A stretch of 64,000 nucleotides of DNA from an uncultured archaeon (GCA_000965745.1 CP009479.1:192001-256000); one strand, 5' to 3'; shown: positions 19,785 through 29,692, counted from the first letter of the stretch. Numbers and translations are program-made. The notes: generated from the letters alone by a model not told the origin.

Positions 19785-20600
19785 GTGGAATTCAGGATTG
19801 GATGCTCAGGATGGAGCTACAAGGGATGGAACGGGGCATTCTACCCGAAGGGAACGAAGCCGTCGGACTATCTGGAACTTTATTCAAGAGCCTTCGACAC
19901 GGTAGAGATAGATTCGACCTTCTATGCAATCCCAGATTCCGGTACAGTCAGGAGTTGGAGAGAGCGGACCCCGGATAATTTTCTCTTCACGGCCAAAGTT
20001 CCTAAGATTGTAACTCACGAAAGGAAACTGGAGAATACCGAAGTACACATGGGATATTTCCTTGAATCCATAGGTAAACTTGGCGACAAGCTCGGCATGA
20101 TCCTTGTCCAGTTCCCCCATGGGTTCACCTATGACTCAGGTGCTGAAAAGTTCAGGAAGTTTCTGGAAAGGCTCCCGACGGATGCCAGGTTTGCAGTGGA
20201 GTTCAGGCATGATTCGTGGTTCAACGATGCTGCATATGCCTGTTTGAAGGAAAACAACGTGACACTTGCATGGTCTGAAATGCCAATGACAGGTTCCACC
20301 AACATAACAACATCATCCTCTGCATACGTCAGGCTGGTAGGGGACAGGTCAATAAAAGAGGAGGATTTTGGAACAGTCCGGAGGGACAGGACAGATGTTA
20401 TCAACAGGTGGGCCAGGGAGCTTGAAAACAAGAAGAATGTGATAGACCACACCTTTGTGTTTTCGAACAACCACTTCCAGGGTTTCGGGCCTGCCACTGT
20501 TAACTTTTTCAGGCAGGCAGTGGGCGTTGAGCCTGTTAATTGGGAAATCAGGATGAAGAATACTTCCACTGGCGAGCAGAAGTCCCTTTTCGACTGGTAG
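19785..20600 (+). CDS. DUF72 (YecE-like) family protein
   Basis: IGCSGWSY, VEIDSTFY, KVPKIVTH, LVQFP, AVEFRH, YVRL, FSNNH. Confidence 0.92.
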   Translation: MEFRIGCSGWSYKGWNGAFYPKGTKPSDYLELYSRAFDTVEIDSTFYAIPDSGTVRSWRERTPDNFLFTAKVPKIVTHERKLENTEVHMGYFLESIGKLGDKLGMILVQFPHGFTYDSGAEKFRKFLERLPTDARFAVEFRHDSWFNDAAYACLKENNVTLAWSEMPMTGSTNITTSSSAYVRLVGDRSIKEEDFGTVRRDRTDVINRWARELENKKNVIDHTFVFSNNHFQGFGPATVNFFRQAVGVEPVNWEIRMKNTSTGEQKSLFDW

Positions 20601-21268: not shown

Positions 21269-21845
21269 GATTTGACAGCCTCCGGTATTCTCCTGGTTTT
21301 GTGTGAGCGGAGACCATACAGGCGTGCAGAAAAGGACGTGATGATCGATATGAGATCACGTGATAGCTCTTCATGTGATGTCAGAATCTCATCGCCATCG
21401 GTTACAATCTCGACGCTGTGCGTTTAACAGATTTTCTCAACAAGATCGTATCCGAATCGTGCAAGACGATCCTTATGGATGATACATATCCTTGAAGCCC
21501 TGTCCGCTTCTATTTCATTCAGCAATCTGACGAACCCCTTGGGATCAAACCTCATGCCGCTTCTGATATCTGAAATAATATCAGGATCCGGCGATATTGA
21601 TTTCAGGCGTTGAACCTGCCTGGCAAGGTCTTCTTTCTGGTCCTGTAATGATACCCGTGCATAGATTATGACCATCTCTCCTTCGCTATGCCTAGCATCC
21701 TGTTGATCTCGCTTTCCGGGACTCTCCTGAAGTTGTTCTGCAGCCTCACGCACTTTATCTTCATCTCTCTGTCCCATTTTCTAAGGGTAGGGGGGTCGAT
21801 CTGCAATATATCACAGACATCTCTGAGGGTGTAGAGTTTCTCCGT
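21265..21845 (-). pseudogene. tnpA: IS607-family serine recombinase TnpA pseudogene
   Basis: MerR-like HTH (EKLYTLRDVCDILQIDPPTLRKWDRE) with ACG in place of the start codon; frameshift; IIYARVS..QKEDLARQ; DRLARFG; in-frame TAA at 21424-21426; then EELSRDLISIITSFSARLYGLRSHK. Confidence 0.92.
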
Positions 21846-21912: not shown

Positions 21913-22548
21913 TCAGATCTTTTCCTTGAGACCGCCGTATATATTTTGTCCATGTCCTGACAGAAGAACATCCGCCCCGGACTCCCTGACCACCCTGGCA
22001 AATTCTGTGCGGGCTTTACCATATGGCTTGTGGGGCGGATCGTGTGGGAACCATTCGGGGGCAACCACCAGGTTTCCCGCCGAATCCCCTATGGCAATAT
22101 CCCCGACTATGAGCTCTTCCTCCGGTGTGAGGAATGCGTACTCATCAATACAGGGAACCCCAGATGTCCTTTCAGATGCCACCGTTATCCTGAATGGCTT
22201 CAGCCCGTAGATTTTATCCATGCCGTATCTCTCGAATTCCCTGATTTCTTTCTGCTCCAGTATAGCTTCCGGGTTGACGGAGATTGACTCATGCTGATCC
22301 GGGATGAGCAGCCTTGCGCCGGTTTTCTTCGAGATGTAACGGGCTCCCCGTGTGTGGTCCAGCGTGGTCAGCATTATTGCCTCCAGCTTACCAAGCCTGC
22401 TGATGGAATCAATCAGGCCGGGAACCAATGGCGGATCGATGGCGATGCACTTACTTTCATCGAGAATGAGGTGGCCGTACATGATCCAGTCGCCTTCTGG
22501 GTCTGGCGTCCCCCATCTCAGAATTCTCCTGGTTACTGGGATGAACAT
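21913..22548 (-). CDS. Metallo-beta-lactamase-fold protein with degenerate metal motif
   Basis: IAIDPP, LTTLDHTRG, LIVGD, LLSGHG; start at MFIPVT. Confidence 0.75.
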   Translation of the reverse strand: MFIPVTRRILRWGTPDPEGDWIMYGHLILDESKCIAIDPPLVPGLIDSISRLGKLEAIMLTTLDHTRGARYISKKTGARLLIPDQHESISVNPEAILEQKEIREFERYGMDKIYGLKPFRITVASERTSGVPCIDEYAFLTPEEELIVGDIAIGDSAGNLVVAPEWFPHDPPHKPYGKARTEFARVVRESGADVLLSGHGQNIYGGLKEKI

Positions 22549-23140
22549 GATACATACACCCGGGAGGTGGATATTATGTTTGACCCGCCATATGGCTGCA
22601 TTCAGGCAAGGAAGCGAAAGTGGCTGTGGACGAAGCCTTATACGCCGTGATTCCTGAGCCAACTGAAAACCAGAGTTGAGGTGCAGAATGTGTGCCGCTT
22701 CATTCTAATCATACATTAAGGGCTTGTCCTGCGGCGTGCGTGAATGGCCTCACTATTGTCCCGTTCTACCTGCATTGAACCGGTTCCTGCATTTGTGCTT
22801 GCAGAGTGCAATAGTCTCCAGTCTGCAAAGAATCCGGATATTGCATCACTTTTGAGAAAATGGTGTCCTGGCCCAACAGTTTCAGGGGAGGTATAATGGG
22901 GGAGTTCACTGCCTGTGTGCGGCCCTCCTCCTATCCGTACATCCTGCTTCATCAATGCCCCCTTACGCCTTCTTGATGATCTTGTCCGTGGATGAACTTC
23001 ACGAAATTTGAGGAAGTAGCCTCGATTTCGAGTGGGGAAAGAACTTGCCGTCGCAGGGTAAATCTCGAGAGCAGCAGTGTCCTGATGAAGCCCGTTCAGA
23101 GAAAAACTATTATAGATTCTGATATTAACCGACTTGCACA

Positions 23141-23203
23141 GGAGGAATGGCGTTTCCTCAAGAATGTGAACCGCCGGCGGCAGCTGGCTGATGACGCCTG
23201 AAT
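23141..23203 (+). promoter_or_regulatory. Fluoride (crcB-class) riboswitch
   Basis: GAGGA-ATGGCGTT-TCCTC (P1), AACCGC, stem GCCGGC/GCTGGC, TGATGACGCCT; pseudoknot GGCGT(23149-53) with ACGCC(23194-98); AT-rich BRE/TATA-like AAAAACTATTATA about 25-35 nt upstream. Confidence 0.88.
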
Positions 23204-23234
23204 TAAGCCGTAGGTGATTCGCATTAACTTCGTA

Positions 23235-24167
23235 ATGTTAGGGGAAACGTTGTCGCAGTACCTGTTCGTGGTATTCCTTTCTCCGCTCTTCACGGGAATA
23301 TTCTCAAAGTTCAAAAGCAGGATTGAGTCCAAAAAGGGGCCATCTATTTTTCAGCCGTATTACGATATTTTCAAGTTATTCAGGAAGGAAACGCTTATCC
23401 CTGAAGGTTCAGGAATACTTTTCAGATATGTCCCGTATGCTGCATTTGGCGTATATTCCCTAATATCCCTGATAGTTCCTGTCCTGATACCAGTTCCCGT
23501 ATTTTTTACAGCTTCTGCAGACTTCCTGGGTGGTGCAATACTCTTTTCCCTCGCTGCATTCCTGAAGATGTCCGCAGCCATGAATTCAGGCAGTAACTTC
23601 TCTGCCATGGGAACCTCCAGGATAATTTCCTTCAATTTCCTGGCCGAAGGGGCGCTCATAACAGTATTCTTTGGAGTGTCACTGATTACCGCAACAAACA
23701 ATCCCTATACGACACATTCATTCCTGTCGACAAACCTCCTGCAGAATTTCTCACTTGTTCACATCTTCTCAACACTTGCGTTCTTCATGCTTTTCCTGTA
23801 TGAAACAGGAAAAATACCCCTTCAGAGCGAAGGGCTGCCGGAGCTTGGAATGATCGATTCGGGCCTGAATTTTGAGTACAGCGGGAAACTGCTTGCCATA
23901 AACAGGTGGACGTCCCACATGAAGCAGTATCTTCTGGGGTCAATATTTCTTAATGTGTTCTTTGTCCCTTGGGGGCTCTTCAGCACATACCCGCTATTCC
24001 TTCTGGATTTTCCAGTCATGTTTCTCAAGTGGATGCTTCTGATCTTTATCGTCATCGTAATAGAGACCACCCTTGCCAAACTCAGGCTCTTCAAGGTGCT
24101 TGATTATCTTGCCACTGCTTTCACGTTTTCCGTCCTGTTCCTCATATTCAGCGAGGTGATAGTGTGA
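23235..24167 (+). CDS. Ehr/Hyf complex subunit, HyfC/NuoH-like
   Basis: KSRIESKKGPSIFQPYYDIFKLFRKE, ETGKIP, EYSG, IETTLAKLR; alternative GTG start at 23214. Confidence 0.9.
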   Translation: MLGETLSQYLFVVFLSPLFTGIFSKFKSRIESKKGPSIFQPYYDIFKLFRKETLIPEGSGILFRYVPYAAFGVYSLISLIVPVLIPVPVFFTASADFLGGAILFSLAAFLKMSAAMNSGSNFSAMGTSRIISFNFLAEGALITVFFGVSLITATNNPYTTHSFLSTNLLQNFSLVHIFSTLAFFMLFLYETGKIPLQSEGLPELGMIDSGLNFEYSGKLLAINRWTSHMKQYLLGSIFLNVFFVPWGLFSTYPLFLLDFPVMFLKWMLLIFIVIVIETTLAKLRLFKVLDYLATAFTFSVLFLIFSEVIV

Positions 24168-24811
24168 ACGCGCTGATTGAGGTGCTGATATACCCAATCT
24201 CAAGCTTTATCCTGATATCGGCATTTTACCTTCAGGCCCAGGAGTTTGTCCGCTCAATGGTGATTGGGCAGATGATACAGTCGGCCCTTCTCGGTTTTCT
24301 CTCATTTGTTATAGGATTCGCCGAGTCCGATTACGACTTCTTCATACTTGGAGTGCTGATAGTCGTGCTCAGGGCATTCCTCGTAACTTACATGCTTGAG
24401 AGAAGGGTCCCGAGGGAGAAGATCCATCTCCATGAGAAGAAAGTGGATGTTGCCTTCACATTCCTTGTCAACCTGATCCTCGTCGTCACTGCTGTTTTCC
24501 TCATATATTTCCTGATTTTCAGGTCAATCCACCTCGTCCCTGATATAGGAAGCAGCACCATCTTCATCTTTCCCTTGACACTCTTCTTCCAGGGGCTATT
24601 CCTCATCGCATCCAGGAAGACCACATTTGCCCAGATAATCGGGTATGTGGAGGAGGAGAATGCGCTTGTCCTATTCGCCATGTTTCTTCTCCCGATTCCG
24701 CTGATCATTGAGGCAAGCGTGTTCCTGGATGTCCTCGCGCTCGTAGTGGTGTCGTCAATAGTTGTCATAGAGAAATTCGCCCATGAAAAAATGGAGGATT
24801 TGGTAGGATGA
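24164..24811 (+). CDS. Ehr/Hyf complex subunit, HyfE-like membrane protein
   Basis: Multi-TM, QIIGYVEEENA, IEASVFLDV; overlaps both neighbouring genes. Confidence 0.85.
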   Translation: MNALIEVLIYPISSFILISAFYLQAQEFVRSMVIGQMIQSALLGFLSFVIGFAESDYDFFILGVLIVVLRAFLVTYMLERRVPREKIHLHEKKVDVAFTFLVNLILVVTAVFLIYFLIFRSIHLVPDIGSSTIFIFPLTLFFQGLFLIASRKTTFAQIIGYVEEENALVLFAMFLLPIPLIIEASVFLDVLALVVVSSIVVIEKFAHEKMEDLVG

Positions 24812-26151
24812 TCGCACAGACACTTCTTGCGTTGCTTATCCTTTTCATTCCGGTTGCGTCGTACGCTGCCTATTGCTTCGCGGGAAAGTCCTCTCTTATT
24901 GTGGGCGGGGGACTGAACGTGGCAGTCGCAGGCCTGATGTACTTCGGACCGGACCTGTCGGGAATTTTCTACATAGATTTCACAACCTGGGTCTTCGTTA
25001 TCATGGTTGCTTCTGTCCATTTCCTGTCTGTCACATACGCGACAAAGTATTTTCATGGCACGGATCTCGGAATAAGGGAGAATACCTTCTACCTCCTCAT
25101 GAGCCTGTTCACAACATCGATGTTCTTCAGCCTTGAAATCAACAATTTCGGGTTGATGTGGGTAGGAATAGAGGCAACAACCATCTCATCGTCGCTACTC
25201 CTTATTGCGGAAAAAACAGAAACCTCGCTTGAAGCCACCTGGAGATATCTGGTTCTGGTATCAGCAGGCGTTACGTTTGCATTCCTGTCAATCATACTGA
25301 TATTCTATTCCCTTGGCACTCTCGATGTCTCGTCGATAATTTCCCATGGCCCCGAAGCATCCCCCGTTCTTGCACTTGCTGTTACGATAGCACTGATGGG
25401 CTTTGGAACAAAGGTTGGCATATTCCCAGTTCACACATGGCTGCCGGACGCGCACAGCGAGTCGCCTGCCCCGGTCAGCGCCATGTTCTCCGGAGTCCTG
25501 CTTCCAACTGCCCTGTATGTGCTCTACAGGGTATATGAAATTGATCCACTGACTCCTCTGTACCTGTGGGCAGGAGTCGTGTCAATAGCTGCCGCTTCCA
25601 TCTTTCTCGGGTACCAGACCAGGTACAAGCGCATGTTTGCCTATTCAACCATGGAGAACATGAACCTGGCACTCATAGGGTTTGCAATAGGCGGTACAGC
25701 CGGAATAACAGGCGCGCTACTTCTCCTCATTTCGCACAGTTTTGCGAAAGCAGGGGCTTTTTACACGTCAGGGTCAATTTTCAAGGCCTCCGGCCTCAAG
25801 AAGATCTCCGAGATCAAGGGCCTCTGGAAGTCAATGCCCGCATCCTCGGCATCACTCCTCATGTCCTCCCTTGCAGTTACAGGGGCGCCACCCTTTGGGA
25901 CTTTCTTCGGTGAATTCCTGATATTCTACGGCCTCCTGTCAATGCATTATTACTTTCCGCTGGCAATAATTGCATTCTTTCTAGTAACAGCATTCATAGC
26001 TGTCAACCATAACGTCTCCGGGATGCTGTTCGATGGGGAATCGTCCTACAGTGAGCCTGGAAAGGTGATGCCTTTCCTTGGAATACTGTCTTCTGCCATA
26101 CCTGTTCTGATAGGGTTGGTTTTCGTGGTGGTGTATCTTGAAACATTATAA
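24808..26151 (+). CDS. Ehr/Hyf complex antiporter-like subunit, HyfF-like (NuoL/M/N family)
   Basis: WVGIEATT, EATWRY, GTKVGIFPVHTWLPDAHSESPAPVSAMFSG, KRMFAYST. Confidence 0.92.
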   Translation: MIAQTLLALLILFIPVASYAAYCFAGKSSLIVGGGLNVAVAGLMYFGPDLSGIFYIDFTTWVFVIMVASVHFLSVTYATKYFHGTDLGIRENTFYLLMSLFTTSMFFSLEINNFGLMWVGIEATTISSSLLLIAEKTETSLEATWRYLVLVSAGVTFAFLSIILIFYSLGTLDVSSIISHGPEASPVLALAVTIALMGFGTKVGIFPVHTWLPDAHSESPAPVSAMFSGVLLPTALYVLYRVYEIDPLTPLYLWAGVVSIAAASIFLGYQTRYKRMFAYSTMENMNLALIGFAIGGTAGITGALLLLISHSFAKAGAFYTSGSIFKASGLKKISEIKGLWKSMPASSASLLMSSLAVTGAPPFGTFFGEFLIFYGLLSMHYYFPLAIIAFFLVTAFIAVNHNVSGMLFDGESSYSEPGKVMPFLGILSSAIPVLIGLVFVVVYLETL

Positions 26152-27313
26152 GTTCGGGGAAGCGAGGGGAAGATATATTGGCCCTGCCGGCGACATTCAG
26201 GTCTACTCTGAAGGGCTGGTGAGAGGTGAAAGCGGGTTCAGGAAGGAGCGTCACGACCATGAACACGACGGGCAACTCTGGTTTGATTACGGGCCGTCCA
26301 CAGGAGGAATGCTTGAATCGGTAGGGATAAGCTTTCTTACTCCCGGAGAGCTCATTTCGGAAACCCTGGTTGACCCTTCGTTCAAGAAGAGGACGCTTGT
26401 GGTAAAAGGAAAGAGCGTGGAAGATGCGCTGCTTACTGTGGAAAGGATAAACGGGTTTCATGCAGCCTCACACTCAATAGCTTACTGTTCGGCTGTGGAG
26501 GATGCCCTGGGCATTAATACGGATGCGGGGACGCGCAGCAGCAGGATTGTCATGCTGGAGATGGAGAGGGTGAGGAGCCACCTTGAAGTCATCAAGAGGC
26601 TATGCGAGCCGGCTGGCTTTGGTGTCCCCCACAGCCAGATCGGTTACATCAGAGAGAGGATGTCGAGGCTGATATCATCGGTATCCGGGCACAGATACTT
26701 CTTTTCAGCCAACAGCATTGGATCAGCCGCAATTGACTCCAAGAACCTTCTGGGTGAGACAGAGGCTATTGGGGCAGAGTTTGCCAGGGTTTATGACGGG
26801 CTTCTCCAATCAAAGATCTTTCTAAACAGGCTGCAGAACAATGGAAGGAATGAGGATGGGCAGCATCTCATCGGCCCTGCTGCCAGGGCATGCAACAGGA
26901 GGATAGACGCCAGGCTGGATTCTCCTTCCATGGATTATTCAGGCGCAGAATTTGAGGTGCCAGTTGCAGAAGAGGGAGACTCATTCGCCAGGTTCGCTGT
27001 CAGGAGTGGTGAAATCATGCAGTCCCTGTCAATCATAAGGAATATTGCAGAAGGACCGGAGGAGGAAGGAAGAGAGCACGACACAGGAGGAAGTGGAGAG
27101 GGGGCAGCCAGAGTTGAGAGCCCGCAGGGAGACCTGTTCTATTACGTGAATGTGCGGGATGGGATTCTTGAGGATATCAGGATGCTGTCGCCTTCCATGG
27201 TCAACATCAGTTCCTTTGAAGCCTCAATGAAGGGCAATATATTCACGGATTTCCACTTCAACTGGGAAAGTTACGGCATTTGGATATCTGAGGCGGGGGT
27301 GGAATTTGCATGA
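26138..27313 (+). CDS. Ehr large subunit (HyfG/NuoD-like) without NiFe-binding motifs
   Basis: ERINGFHAASH instead of RxCGxCxxxH; EMERVRSHL; VESPQG; no C-terminal DPCxxC. Confidence 0.88.
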   Translation: MKHYKFGEARGRYIGPAGDIQVYSEGLVRGESGFRKERHDHEHDGQLWFDYGPSTGGMLESVGISFLTPGELISETLVDPSFKKRTLVVKGKSVEDALLTVERINGFHAASHSIAYCSAVEDALGINTDAGTRSSRIVMLEMERVRSHLEVIKRLCEPAGFGVPHSQIGYIRERMSRLISSVSGHRYFFSANSIGSAAIDSKNLLGETEAIGAEFARVYDGLLQSKIFLNRLQNNGRNEDGQHLIGPAARACNRRIDARLDSPSMDYSGAEFEVPVAEEGDSFARFAVRSGEIMQSLSIIRNIAEGPEEEGREHDTGGSGEGAARVESPQGDLFYYVNVRDGILEDIRMLSPSMVNISSFEASMKGNIFTDFHFNWESYGIWISEAGVEFA

Positions 27314-27942
27314 GCAGTTTCTGGTTTTTTGAAGGCTTAAGGAAGGGCAGGAAAACTGAGAAATTTCCCCGTGCACCTCCTGAATCACCGCCCCTAAGGC
27401 CATCAAGAATGAAAGGGGAAGGGTTCCATGAATGCCCTACCGATGCGATTGCGGAGGGCGAATGGGTGCAGGAAAAATGCATCTTCTGCAGAAGGTGTGA
27501 AGAACAGTTCAAGCCGACTGGGGAGCAAGACATATTCGACGTAAAGAGGACTGAAAAAATTCTCATGAGGTCAATACACCTCTACAGGCTGGACAGCGGA
27601 TCATGCGGAGCCTGCAACACGGAATTCTCAGCGATATTTGACCCACAGTATGACGCCCACAGGCTCAGGATATTTGAGACCAACACCCCGAGGCACGCAG
27701 ATGCGATCGTGATAATGGGAATTGCCACCGATGGTATGAAGGAGGCTCTTGACAGGGCATATGAGGCAATGCCTGAACCAAAACTCGTGATCGCGCTTGG
27801 TGCGTGTGCGGTCTCCGGAGGTGTGCTTGGCGACGCCCCGCTGGATCGTGACATGTACGACGTTGAGATAGCAGGGTGCCCGCCTTCACCATACACAATC
27901 CTTGAAGCTATAGACCGGGCAAGGGGCGATTCACATGATTGA
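27310..27942 (+). CDS. Ehr small subunit (HyfI/NuoB-like) with N-terminal ferredoxin-like segment
   Basis: ECPTDAI...CIFCRRC; SGSCGACN, PRHAD, PEPKLVIALGAC, GCPP. Confidence 0.9.
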   Translation: MSSFWFFEGLRKGRKTEKFPRAPPESPPLRPSRMKGEGFHECPTDAIAEGEWVQEKCIFCRRCEEQFKPTGEQDIFDVKRTEKILMRSIHLYRLDSGSCGACNTEFSAIFDPQYDAHRLRIFETNTPRHADAIVIMGIATDGMKEALDRAYEAMPEPKLVIALGACAVSGGVLGDAPLDRDMYDVEIAGCPPSPYTILEAIDRARGDSHD

Positions 27943-29692
27943 TATGGTCCTTGTCCTGCTGTTCGGGCTATCCAGCATTCTGGGTGCAATGCACAGGAGG
28001 CTCGGGTATTATTCCATCATGGCGGTTTCTGCCGCCTTTCTGGTAAACACGGCCCTCGATCTTACCTACACCGGATATTTCTCCATGATTGCATCCACTG
28101 TGTGGATCCTTGTCTCCTTCTTCTCAATTTCCTACGGTGAACGGTACGGAAAATGGCTTTCATCAATGCTTGCCCTGACAATAATGGGCATGTCCCTGAT
28201 TCTTGTCTCTGACAACTACCTTTACCTGATTGTGGGGTGGGAAGTCATGTCAGTTCCTTCATACGTCATAATTGGGCTCAACAAGAGCGATTCAAGGCCC
28301 CCCTTCATATTCATGATGTTCAGCGAGATAAGCACCATTTTCATAATAACAGGGGCAGCCTACGCCTTCGTTGTGACCGGTACACTTGCTTTCCAGTCCG
28401 TAAGCTCATACGTCCCGATGCTCCTGCTTTCGGTCGGAGCACTCGTAAAGATGGGGATGTCACCTTTCATGATCAGCGAATGGCTCCCCATAGCACATGG
28501 AAACGCACCCTCAAATGCTTCGGCAGTTCTAAGTTCTACCATGACACTGATGGGCGTATACCTTATTGTCAGGATGATGCTTATTTCGCCCCACCAGGCA
28601 TATGTCGGGCTGTTCTTTCTGATAGTGGGTGCGATTTCGATCCTGTTTGCAGCCATGTACGCATATGTATCAGAAAACATGAAGATGCTTGCGGGTTTCA
28701 GCACAGTGGACAATAATGCAGCAATTCTCGCAGGCGCAGGGCTGTATCTGGTGGTATCTTCACCAACCTTGCAGGTGTTCATACTCGACACCATCCTCAT
28801 AATGTCCCTCGCCCATTCAGTCGCAAAGTCGGGCCTCTTCATGTCAATCGGGAACACCGATGGGGAATTCTTCTCCCAGATAAGGGCAAAATCGAATTCA
28901 TTGAACAACATTGGAACATTCCTGTCCACCATGTCGCTCTCAGGCCTGCTCCCGACAATAGGGGGACTCGGAGTATGGATGCTGCTTGAGGCATTCTTCA
29001 TGGAAGCATACACAGGCGGATTCACTGGAATAATATCAATTGTGGTGGGATCAGTCATCGCTCTCGGGGAAGGGCTTGCCACCGGGGCAATGCTGAAAGT
29101 GCTTGCTTTCGGAAGCCTTTTTCACAGGCCCCGGGAGATGAGGCATGACACGGGTGCATACGCAGTCCTTGCAACAGGTGCTGTCCTTGTCGCCCTTTTC
29201 GCCGTTTCAACACTCATGGTCAATTCAGCATACATAGGGGGCCTTCCCTCTGTCGCGGTTTTCAACGGCTTCACCATATTGTCGAAATTCACGGGTGTCG
29301 ACTTTGGCCTGATATCCCCCGGATACATCATAGTTCTGGTTGGCATTTTCACAGTCGCTGCATATTATTTGTTTGGCAAGCCCAGGTCACGACCCGCTCC
29401 TGTGTGGAACGGCGGGAGGAAGCTGAATGAGGTGTATACGTCCTATGCCTATTCCAACAACATCAAGCTGATGCTGAGTAAGATTCTCAGGACAAGAGTA
29501 ACAAGATCGGGACAGCACGTAAGCATCGTGGATGTATTCTGGGCAGCAATGACCGGAACAGGGATCGCCTACAGGAAAATGTGCAGGTTCGTGACGCTGA
29601 AAATCATGAACAGTTCCATAGGCTGGTACATGGTATACATGATGGCAGCTTTCCTGGGAACTCTCCTCATCTTCGCCTTTGCATACAGTTGA
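27935..29692 (+). CDS. Ehr/Hyf complex antiporter-like subunit, HyfB-like
   Basis: GWEVMS, KMGMSPF..EWLPIAHGNAPSNASAVLS, AHSVAKSGLF. Confidence 0.9.
   Translation: MIDMVLVLLFGLSSILGAMHRRLGYYSIMAVSAAFLVNTALDLTYTGYFSMIASTVWILVSFFSISYGERYGKWLSSMLALTIMGMSLILVSDNYLYLIVGWEVMSVPSYVIIGLNKSDSRPPFIFMMFSEISTIFIITGAAYAFVVTGTLAFQSVSSYVPMLLLSVGALVKMGMSPFMISEWLPIAHGNAPSNASAVLSSTMTLMGVYLIVRMMLISPHQAYVGLFFLIVGAISILFAAMYAYVSENMKMLAGFSTVDNNAAILAGAGLYLVVSSPTLQVFILDTILIMSLAHSVAKSGLFMSIGNTDGEFFSQIRAKSNSLNNIGTFLSTMSLSGLLPTIGGLGVWMLLEAFFMEAYTGGFTGIISIVVGSVIALGEGLATGAMLKVLAFGSLFHRPREMRHDTGAYAVLATGAVLVALFAVSTLMVNSAYIGGLPSVAVFNGFTILSKFTGVDFGLISPGYIIVLVGIFTVAAYYLFGKPRSRPAPVWNGGRKLNEVYTSYAYSNNIKLMLSKILRTRVTRSGQHVSIVDVFWAAMTGTGIAYRKMCRFVTLKIMNSSIGWYMVYMMAAFLGTLLIFAFAYS

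Follow-up and report, generated by a model that had tools for sequence, protein, structure and literature searches.

Why does an RNA motif of the fluoride-sensing crcB class stand before genes that carry hydrogenase names? The question was raised by a stretch of 64,000 nucleotides from the genome of an uncultured archaeon (GCA_000965745.1, CP009479.1:192001-256000; called the window below, with positions counted from its first letter), in which such an aptamer precedes a six-gene operon for a membrane complex of the Ehr type. Ehr stands for 'energy-converting hydrogenase-related'. These membrane complexes are widespread; they are akin to complex I and to the energy-converting (group 4) hydrogenases but have no nickel-iron site, and no function is assigned to them in reviews (PMC10432482, PMC6349859). 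The answer favoured here, with moderate confidence, is that Ehr would be a fluoride-induced, Fe-S-containing, redox-driven ion pump, switched at the level of translation, that offsets the proton load and the loss of proton-motive force caused by HF.

The window was scanned by using cmscan and Rfam. The Fluoride model RF01734 was matched over its full length with 38.4 bits (E 4.3e-7; gathering score 34 bits), and this was the sole match of any Rfam family. The complete host genome (one contig of 2,226,687 bases, 99.4% complete, 46.4% G+C) was scanned with RF01734, and the aptamer was again the only Fluoride match (E 3.6e-9). An original prediction, made from the window alone, had described a complete crcB-class aptamer and had proposed an Infernal run with the Rfam fluoride model; all of the elements that it listed were found at 23100-23240, and the score lies above the cut-off (38.4 versus 34 bits). 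Covariation was analysed with the window aptamer and 26 aptamers of related genomes (27 in total) by counting the pairs of P1, P3 and the pseudoknot. Standard pairs occupied 95.6% of the cells, changes on both sides were found in 12 of the 14 pairs and the pseudoknot was paired in 100%; the observed covariation was matched by none of 500 shuffles, and sliding the 3' partners, as a control, lowered the pairing to 33-53%. By sequence and covariation the element is a genuine crcB-class fluoride riboswitch; the binding of fluoride itself is predicted.

Six open reading frames (ORFs) lie downstream of the aptamer on the + strand, each overlapping the next by 4-14 nt. ORF overlaps and profile matches agree with the overlapping operon, and with the protein families, that had been proposed for this position (Table 1). 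The hallmarks of an Ehr complex are present in one operon: a NuoD-type subunit without CxxC motifs (EhrL), a NuoB-like [4Fe-4S] subunit (EhrS), a NuoH-like subunit and two PF00361 proteins (EhrF and EhrB). In EhrL the sequence RINGFH stands in place of the [NiFe] motif RxCGxC and the C-terminal CxxC is absent, as the original prediction had claimed; both Ni-Fe CxxC motifs were missing from 21 of 21 orthologues. EhrL is the only PF00374 match in the genome. The maturation proteins HypD (PF01924) and HypC (PF01455) were not found in the complete genome (the controls gave matches in four of 14 reference genomes), no formate dehydrogenase domain was found in the operon or its flanking ORFs, and no seventh gene was conserved among 21 operons. 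Because the Ni-Fe ligands and HypC/HypD are absent and the sole PF00374 match is EhrL, the operon is assigned, on gene content, to an Ehr-type complex and not to a [NiFe] hydrogenase or a formate hydrogenlyase (FHL). The earlier statement that this is not a hydrogenase thus holds, with Ni-Fe ligands in 0 of 21 orthologues and no HypC or HypD gene in the genome.

The subunits were compared with solved relatives, the best of which are chains of E. coli FHL, of the membrane-bound hydrogenase (MBH) and the sulfane reductase (MBS) of Pyrococcus, and of complex I. For EhrL the closest were 7Z0S_E, 2FUG_4 and 6CFW_L (E about 1e-14). Many of its charged residues do not vary among the orthologues, and GPSTGG is found at the position of the complex I motif GPQHPxxHG. 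EhrS aligns with 6CFW_J (MbhJ; E 5.9e-24) and with the HycG chain 7Z0S_G. All four of its proximal [4Fe-4S] cysteines are retained without change by 21 of 21 orthologues, the most distant of which are about 35% identical. Its N-terminus is a one-cluster ferredoxin-like remnant (CP...CxxCxxC), the cluster motif of which is kept in the family of the window and degenerate in a sister family. The closest solved chains to EhrF were 6U8Y_H and 6CFW_H; a Glu in transmembrane helix (TM) 5, a Lys in TM7 and a Glu in TM12 are present, and EhrB has the TM5 Glu (GWE) and the TM7 Lys. The HyfE-like subunit was kept at its position in all 20 fetched operons. Compared with complex I, the full set of which has 11-14 subunits, there are six genes only, NuoC is absent and NuoI is present as a remnant; a separate NuoD paralogue is encoded elsewhere in the host genome. 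The invariant [4Fe-4S] cysteines, the invariant charged residues of EhrL and the antiporter-like modules fit a redox-driven ion pump; induction by fluoride, redox drive and ion movement are ascribed to Ehr from homology.

Table 1. Features of the riboswitch-Ehr locus (positions in the window).
Feature	Position	Strand	Basis and details
TATA-like element CTATTATAGA	23107-23116	+	Sequence; 26 nt upstream of P1
Fluoride riboswitch aptamer (crcB motif)	23134-23207	+	RF01734 covariance match
P1	23142-23146 (GAGGA) / 23155-23159 (UCCUC)	+	Sequence; loop AUGGCGUU, then AACCGC
Pseudoknot	23149-23153 (GGCGU) / 23194-23198 (ACGCC)	+	Sequence
P3	23173-23178 (GCCGGC) / 23183-23188 (GCUGGC)	+	Sequence
Candidate expression platform	23163-23225 (helix 23163-23181 with 23207-23225)	+	Minimum-free-energy fold
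ehrH-like gene, NuoH/HycD-type membrane subunit	23214-24167	+	PF00146, E 2.6e-29; start GTG 23214 or ATG 23235
HyfE-like small hydrophobic subunit	24164-24811	+	Weak NF008556 'hydrogenase 4 membrane subunit', E 1.3e-4
EhrF, antiporter-like (HyfF/NuoN-M/MbsH-like)	24808-26151	+	PF00361, E 3.3e-49; NF005042, 565 bits (cut-off 437)
EhrL, NuoD/[NiFe]-large homologue without Ni-Fe ligands	26138-27313	+	PF00346, PF00374
EhrS, NuoB/MbhJ/HycG-like small subunit	27310-27942	+	PF01058
EhrB, antiporter-like (HyfB/NuoL-like)	27935-29692	+	PF00361; NF005046, 646 bits (cut-off 460)

The association of riboswitch and operon was followed in 61 genomes of the same order (Thermoplasmatales-like). A Fluoride riboswitch match was obtained in 51 of the 61. 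Named records include Oxyplasma meridianum, Cuniculiplasmataceae and many Thermoplasmata metagenome-assembled genomes (MAGs); among cultured relatives, Oxyplasma meridianum M1 and Cuniculiplasma have the operon. Among the best 30 riboswitch loci of the relatives, the first gene after the aptamer was an ehrH homologue (43-80% identity) in 17. EhrL orthologues (E < 1e-30) were identified in 36 of the 61 genomes. The original prediction had called for a count of ehr operons with the riboswitch: a clear aptamer was located about 2.9-3.2 kb 5' of EhrL, on the same strand, in 34 of the 36 Ehr genomes, some of these aptamers scoring below the Rfam cut-off but occupying the orthologous position. Some Ehr copies, on the short contigs G020:C86, G035:C23 and G057:C3, were left unscored because the contig stops short of the place at which an aptamer would be expected. 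The six genes and their order were identical in 20 of 20 fetched operons. The two remaining Ehr genomes (G043 and G055, of one genus) hold degenerate aptamer-like matches exactly at the orthologous position (L135:4826-4899 and L136:4704-4777, both on the - strand; 15 and 11 bits), which may be a decaying or variant riboswitch. One relative carries a second Ehr-like operon (L137; G006:C3:127500-134000) with no aptamer detectable upstream even in an unfiltered search.

Beyond the order, 80 further Ehr loci were found when each species was represented by a single genome. With a model made from the aptamers of the order, matches were obtained about 3 kb 5' of EhrL in most of the closer outside loci; loci with an aptamer belong to Sulfolobales, acid-peat Methanobacteriaceae, Micrarchaeota, Nitrososphaeria and MAGs of Bacteroidetes and Spirochaetales. 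The idea of a system dedicated to acidophiles proved too narrow, since the pairing also occurs in the Bacteroidetes and Spirochaetales MAGs and in acid-peat Methanobacteriaceae. In Acidianus copahuensis, Metallosphaera yellowstonensis and a Sulfolobales MAG (L083, L085 and L082) the Ehr gene order is circularly permuted (F-L-S-B-H-E), and the aptamer precedes the new first gene. These permuted Sulfolobales operons, with the aptamer kept at the head, indicate, as a separate line of evidence, that the switch acts for the operon as a whole. Their EhrL proteins are 42-45% identical to that of the window. Several out-of-phylum EhrL proteins are 42-46% identical to it, compared with 35-39% for some of its own family, which suggests that the Ehr operon was transferred horizontally between phyla, mostly between inhabitants of acidic environments; biased sampling may also play a part in this picture. 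A Bacteroidetes MAG carries tandem aptamer matches (L107:1516-2182), the first preceding a DUF190 gene and the second, weaker one preceding the Ehr operon; a further DUF190 gene lies 3' of that operon.

The aptamer is in sense orientation in the 5' leader, a position that is the same in 34 related genomes. A TATA-like element had been predicted before it and was found (Table 1); similar AT-rich boxes lie at a similar distance 5' of P1 in most of 20 orthologous leaders. From the spacing of these boxes, transcription probably starts a few nucleotides before P1. The original prediction had put the aptamer about 30 nt before the operon by taking ATG 23235 as the start. The leader position was confirmed and the start was not, the first in-frame start being GTG 23214; the end of the pseudoknot is 15 nt from this GTG and 36 nt from ATG 23235.

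In the minimum-free-energy fold of 23138-23245, an alternative helix (the candidate expression platform) keeps P1 and excludes P3. It buries the Shine-Dalgarno (SD)-like AGGUGAU (23212-23218) together with the in-frame GUG (23214-23216), and, compared with the aptamer fold computed without the pseudoknot, it gains about 9 kcal/mol in stability. AACCGCC of the aptamer core is complementary to GGUGGUU. No U-tract terminator was found 3' of the aptamer. A related arrangement, with the start region paired to the aptamer core or to the 3' strand of the pseudoknot when that strand is free, was seen in about 12 of 21 orthologous leaders. Across the 21 leaders a mean of 7.4 nucleotides are paired, compared with 5.1 in shuffled linkers, which is modest and suggestive. 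By itself, a short hairpin of AGGUG with the 3' strand of the pseudoknot carries little weight, being partly inherent in any fluoride aptamer that stands before an archaeal SD sequence. Control by a translational ON switch is predicted from these folds; because the effect relative to shuffled linkers is modest, it is graded as likely only.

Fluoride exporters were sought in the window and genome-wide. The original prediction had noted that no Fluc/CrcB or CLC-F gene lies in the window and had proposed a genome search for fluc and clcF; neither was found, in the window or in the genome. No CRCB domain was detected in a six-frame search of the complete genome, and CrcB and DUF190 of a congener, used as tblastn queries, gave nothing better than E = 0.33 there. 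The genome encodes two full-length CLC homologues, in which the CLC-F signatures GNNLI/GMGLI, GREGT/V and GEVTP (taken from PMC11139923) are absent. Both match CLC-ec1 at 1e-19 to 1e-34, and the fluoride CLC 6D0J at 2.6e-15 or not at all; by these matches they are much closer to Cl-/H+ exchangers than to the fluoride CLC. A third CLC match, outside the window (C1:867030-867407, L004), is a fragment of 124-188 residues with an in-frame TGA and is probably a pseudogene. None of the six operon proteins has a CRCB domain or CLC-F features.

In the order, any CrcB match was obtained in four of the 61 genomes, and the gene was intact in two of those four. Other genes linked to the riboswitch in relatives are crcB-DUF190, a MutS-like gene, and a coiled-coil pair with an MFS transporter; no homologues of that MFS transporter, the coiled-coil pair or the MutS-like protein were found in this genome. 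Because the genome holds one aptamer, the Ehr operon is its sole riboswitch target, and by these searches it is the only recognisable member of a fluoride regulon. The coiled-coil genes form a second conserved riboswitch operon in the relatives, in which two small proteins without a clear family are followed by an MFS_1 transporter (L013:1553-3059, +; also L006, L011, L012, L015, L016, L024 and L026, from two sister families). In genomes that have neither CrcB nor Ehr, this transporter is a candidate for a fluoride-related exporter. In three relatives the riboswitch precedes a MutS domain V protein (L018:1609-3066, +; L029; L032), in agreement with the 'mutS' association reported in 2010. In the congener G003 a crcB gene that follows a riboswitch is interrupted by a TAG stop (G003:C161:1696-2159), and a riboswitch-Ehr operon is also present; G002, another congener, carries crcB-DUF190 intact and lacks Ehr, a sample too small for crcB and Ehr to be called mutually exclusive.

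At low external pH fluoride is mostly HF, which crosses membranes and releases H+ and F- inside. In an acidophile HF would thus enter by diffusion and dissociate, and the cytoplasm would be loaded with both H+ and fluoride. The riboswitch at the 5' end of the mRNA would govern a self-contained six-gene Ehr operon. Without fluoride, AGGUGAU and the GUG would be paired to the aptamer core (AACCGCC with the 5' strand of P3), to the 3' strand of the pseudoknot, then free, or to both, and translation would be blocked; with Mg-fluoride bound, P3 and the pseudoknot would form and the start region would be freed. Electrons from a low-potential donor such as ferredoxin would pass through the Fe-S clusters of EhrS to an acceptor, and the redox energy would drive export of H+ (or Na+) through the NuoH-like and the two antiporter-like subunits. 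Such a pump, which would have no need of the phosphoryl-transfer enzymes that are sensitive to fluoride, would re-establish pH and proton-motive force. The accumulation of fluoride as a weak acid has been described, and Na+/H+ antiporters, the second most common class of riboswitch-linked genes, have likewise been read as restoring pH and proton-motive force (PMC11139923).

Several points weigh against this redox-driven pump. A proton pump alone would not remove fluoride, and a higher internal pH would increase its trapping; an exporter would therefore still be needed, and none is recognisable in this genome. No electron donor or acceptor is identifiable, and no module for either is encoded in or beside the operon. 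The residues of the former Ni-Fe/quinone pocket of EhrL vary even within the order, and the quinone-ligating His of GPQHPxxHG appears to be replaced by Gly. In alignments with solved relatives EhrF lacks the TM8 Lys and EhrB the TM8 His. As to the switch, sequestration of the SD sequence in the window could not be distinguished from that in shuffled linkers, 67 of 200 of which equalled it.

The missing exporter gives some room to a different reading, rated as unlikely, in which the Ehr complex itself would be the device that removes fluoride, or an obligatory part of it, and would replace Fluc/CLC-F where CrcB is absent. It is kept in consideration because a proton pump alone leaves fluoride inside. 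The complete genome, with no CrcB, CLCs devoid of CLC-F signatures and Ehr as the only riboswitch target, speaks for it, as does an order in which a fluoride riboswitch is the rule (51 of 61 genomes) and any CrcB match the exception (four of 61). Genomes with an intact crcB (G002 and G030) have no Ehr, and congeners with Ehr have no crcB (G000 and G012) or a broken one (G003); this complementarity, however, rests on two genomes, has a probability of about 15% by chance and is not treated as evidence. Furthermore, no Ehr subunit resembles a known anion channel or transporter, the antiporter-like subunits of Mrp and Nuo are known to move cations, and an exporter of an unrecognised family may be encoded elsewhere in the genome. 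The broader form of the idea, also improbable, is that in CrcB-less acidophiles of the Thermoplasmatales type Ehr would be the primary fluoride-resistance machine, either by expelling fluoride with redox energy or by making life with HF possible at pH 1-2, at which HF/F- cycling through a passive fluoride channel would act as a protonophore.

The variability of the EhrL pocket bears on a further reading, which we doubt to a similar degree: Ehr would be a redox-independent, Mrp-like cation/proton antiporter, induced by fluoride for pH or Na+ homeostasis, with EhrL and EhrS in structural or regulatory roles. Former active-site residues that are not conserved, the absence of a donor/acceptor module in or beside the operon, the degenerate N-terminal cluster of EhrS in the sister family and the frequency of Na+/H+ antiporters among fluoride-riboswitch targets (PMC11139923) are in its favour. 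The proximal [4Fe-4S] cysteines, invariant in 21 of 21 orthologues, and the many invariant charged residues of EhrL argue instead for retained chemistry or electron transfer.

That the aptamer is a relic or is bypassed is very unlikely. Transcription would then start within or after it, for example to give a leaderless mRNA at ATG 23235 from the AT-rich GAATTAAG (23200-23207). Leaderless mRNAs are common in this group, ATG 23235 sits 16 nt from the SD-like element in the genus of the window, which is an unusually long spacing, and one genus of the order has degenerate aptamers at the same position. The aptamer of the window, however, exceeds the Rfam cut-off with its three helices intact, the orthologous aptamer of the same genus scores 43 bits, a TATA-like box lies at the right distance 5' of P1, and crcB-motif RNA has been seen in transcriptomes of related acid-mine Thermoplasmatales (bioRxiv 10.1101/538918). 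A true FHL or hydrogenase-4 that shifts metabolism to fermentation under fluoride is excluded in practice: it has on its side the NCBIfam labels 'hydrogenase 4 subunit F' (EhrF) and 'hydrogenase 4 subunit B' (EhrB), both above cut-off, and the label used in the literature (PMC2864571, PMC11139923), but it is contradicted by the absence of the Ni-Fe CxxC motifs in 21 of 21 orthologues, of HypC and HypD from the genome, and of a formate dehydrogenase in or beside the operon.

Just upstream of the riboswitch, on the opposite (-) strand, lie an ORF with a resolvase N-terminal domain (21424-21777) and an ORF with a weak match to the metallo-beta-lactamase fold (21913-22662). A DUF72 gene is located at 19785-20600 of the window.

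The pairing of the riboswitch with 'formate hydrogen lyase' genes was published in 2010-2012 and is not new in itself. New here are a complete genome that has no known exporter and whose sole riboswitch target is Ehr, the order-wide tally (riboswitch in 51 of 61 genomes, CrcB in four of 61, Ehr with an aptamer in 34 of 36) and the permuted Sulfolobales operon with the aptamer kept at its head. The locus joins the literatures on fluoride riboswitches and on Ehr: because the riboswitch-linked genes encode Ehr complexes that are unable to make hydrogen, fluoride would be a defined inducer with which Ehr can be studied. The order is a natural experiment, in which almost all genomes would sense fluoride and, by the CrcB matches, almost none has a known exporter, and two questions are made testable, namely the role of Ehr and the way in which extreme acidophiles cope with HF. 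If Ehr does prove to be the main means of fluoride resistance, it would add an energy-coupled defence, the third kind, to Fluc and CLC-F, and a function would for the first time be assigned to the Ehr class.

Genes annotated 'formate hydrogen lyase' were included in the fluoride riboswitch regulon when it was described (Weinberg 2010, PMC2864571) and are also listed by Baker 2012, as cited in PMC11139923. In that 2024 review they are read as a metabolic shift, or switch to fermentation. The present locus has the same aptamer consensus and pseudoknot, the same place in the 5' leader, the same predicted ON-switch logic and downstream genes of the same class. It differs in that the genes lack a Ni-Fe site and the genome lacks the maturation genes as well as CrcB and CLC-F; because the Ni-Fe site and the maturation genes are absent, neither the published label nor the reading as a switch to fermentation fits. 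Control is, moreover, probably translational, there being no U-tract terminator, and is found in an archaeon. Acid-mine Thermoplasmatales have been reported to encode 'putative group 4 hydrogenases' without Ni-binding motifs, 'possibly indicating some other function' (PMC3750248). A literature search, with most subscription journals outside its coverage, found no paper that joins fluoride and Ehr.

The NuoB-like small subunit, the NuoH-like subunit and the Mrp antiporter-like subunits are shared with Ehr complexes as described (PMC6349859, PMC10432482). The present complex differs in having no adjacent formate dehydrogenase or NuoE/F partner, as proposed for some bacterial Ehr, in the one-cluster ferredoxin-like remnant fused to the small subunit and in its control by a fluoride riboswitch, which is absent from those two papers. 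With FHL (7Z0S), MBH (6CFW) and MBS (6U8Y) it shares a peripheral NuoD/NuoB pair on a NuoH-like subunit and an antiporter-like arm; a NuoC-like subunit and a full NuoI/HycF-like subunit are absent, as is the Ni-Fe site of E. coli FHL and Pyrococcus MBH. MBS, a sulfane reductase, has a substitute catalytic site, and the complex of the window may or may not have a comparable one. From Fluc (CrcB) and CLC-F it differs in sequence and family, with no kinship to either, and in architecture, the known exporters being single small proteins and the present complex a six-subunit Fe-S membrane assembly; what it has in common with them is that it belongs to the fluoride-riboswitch regulon and presumably contributes to the tolerance of fluoride.

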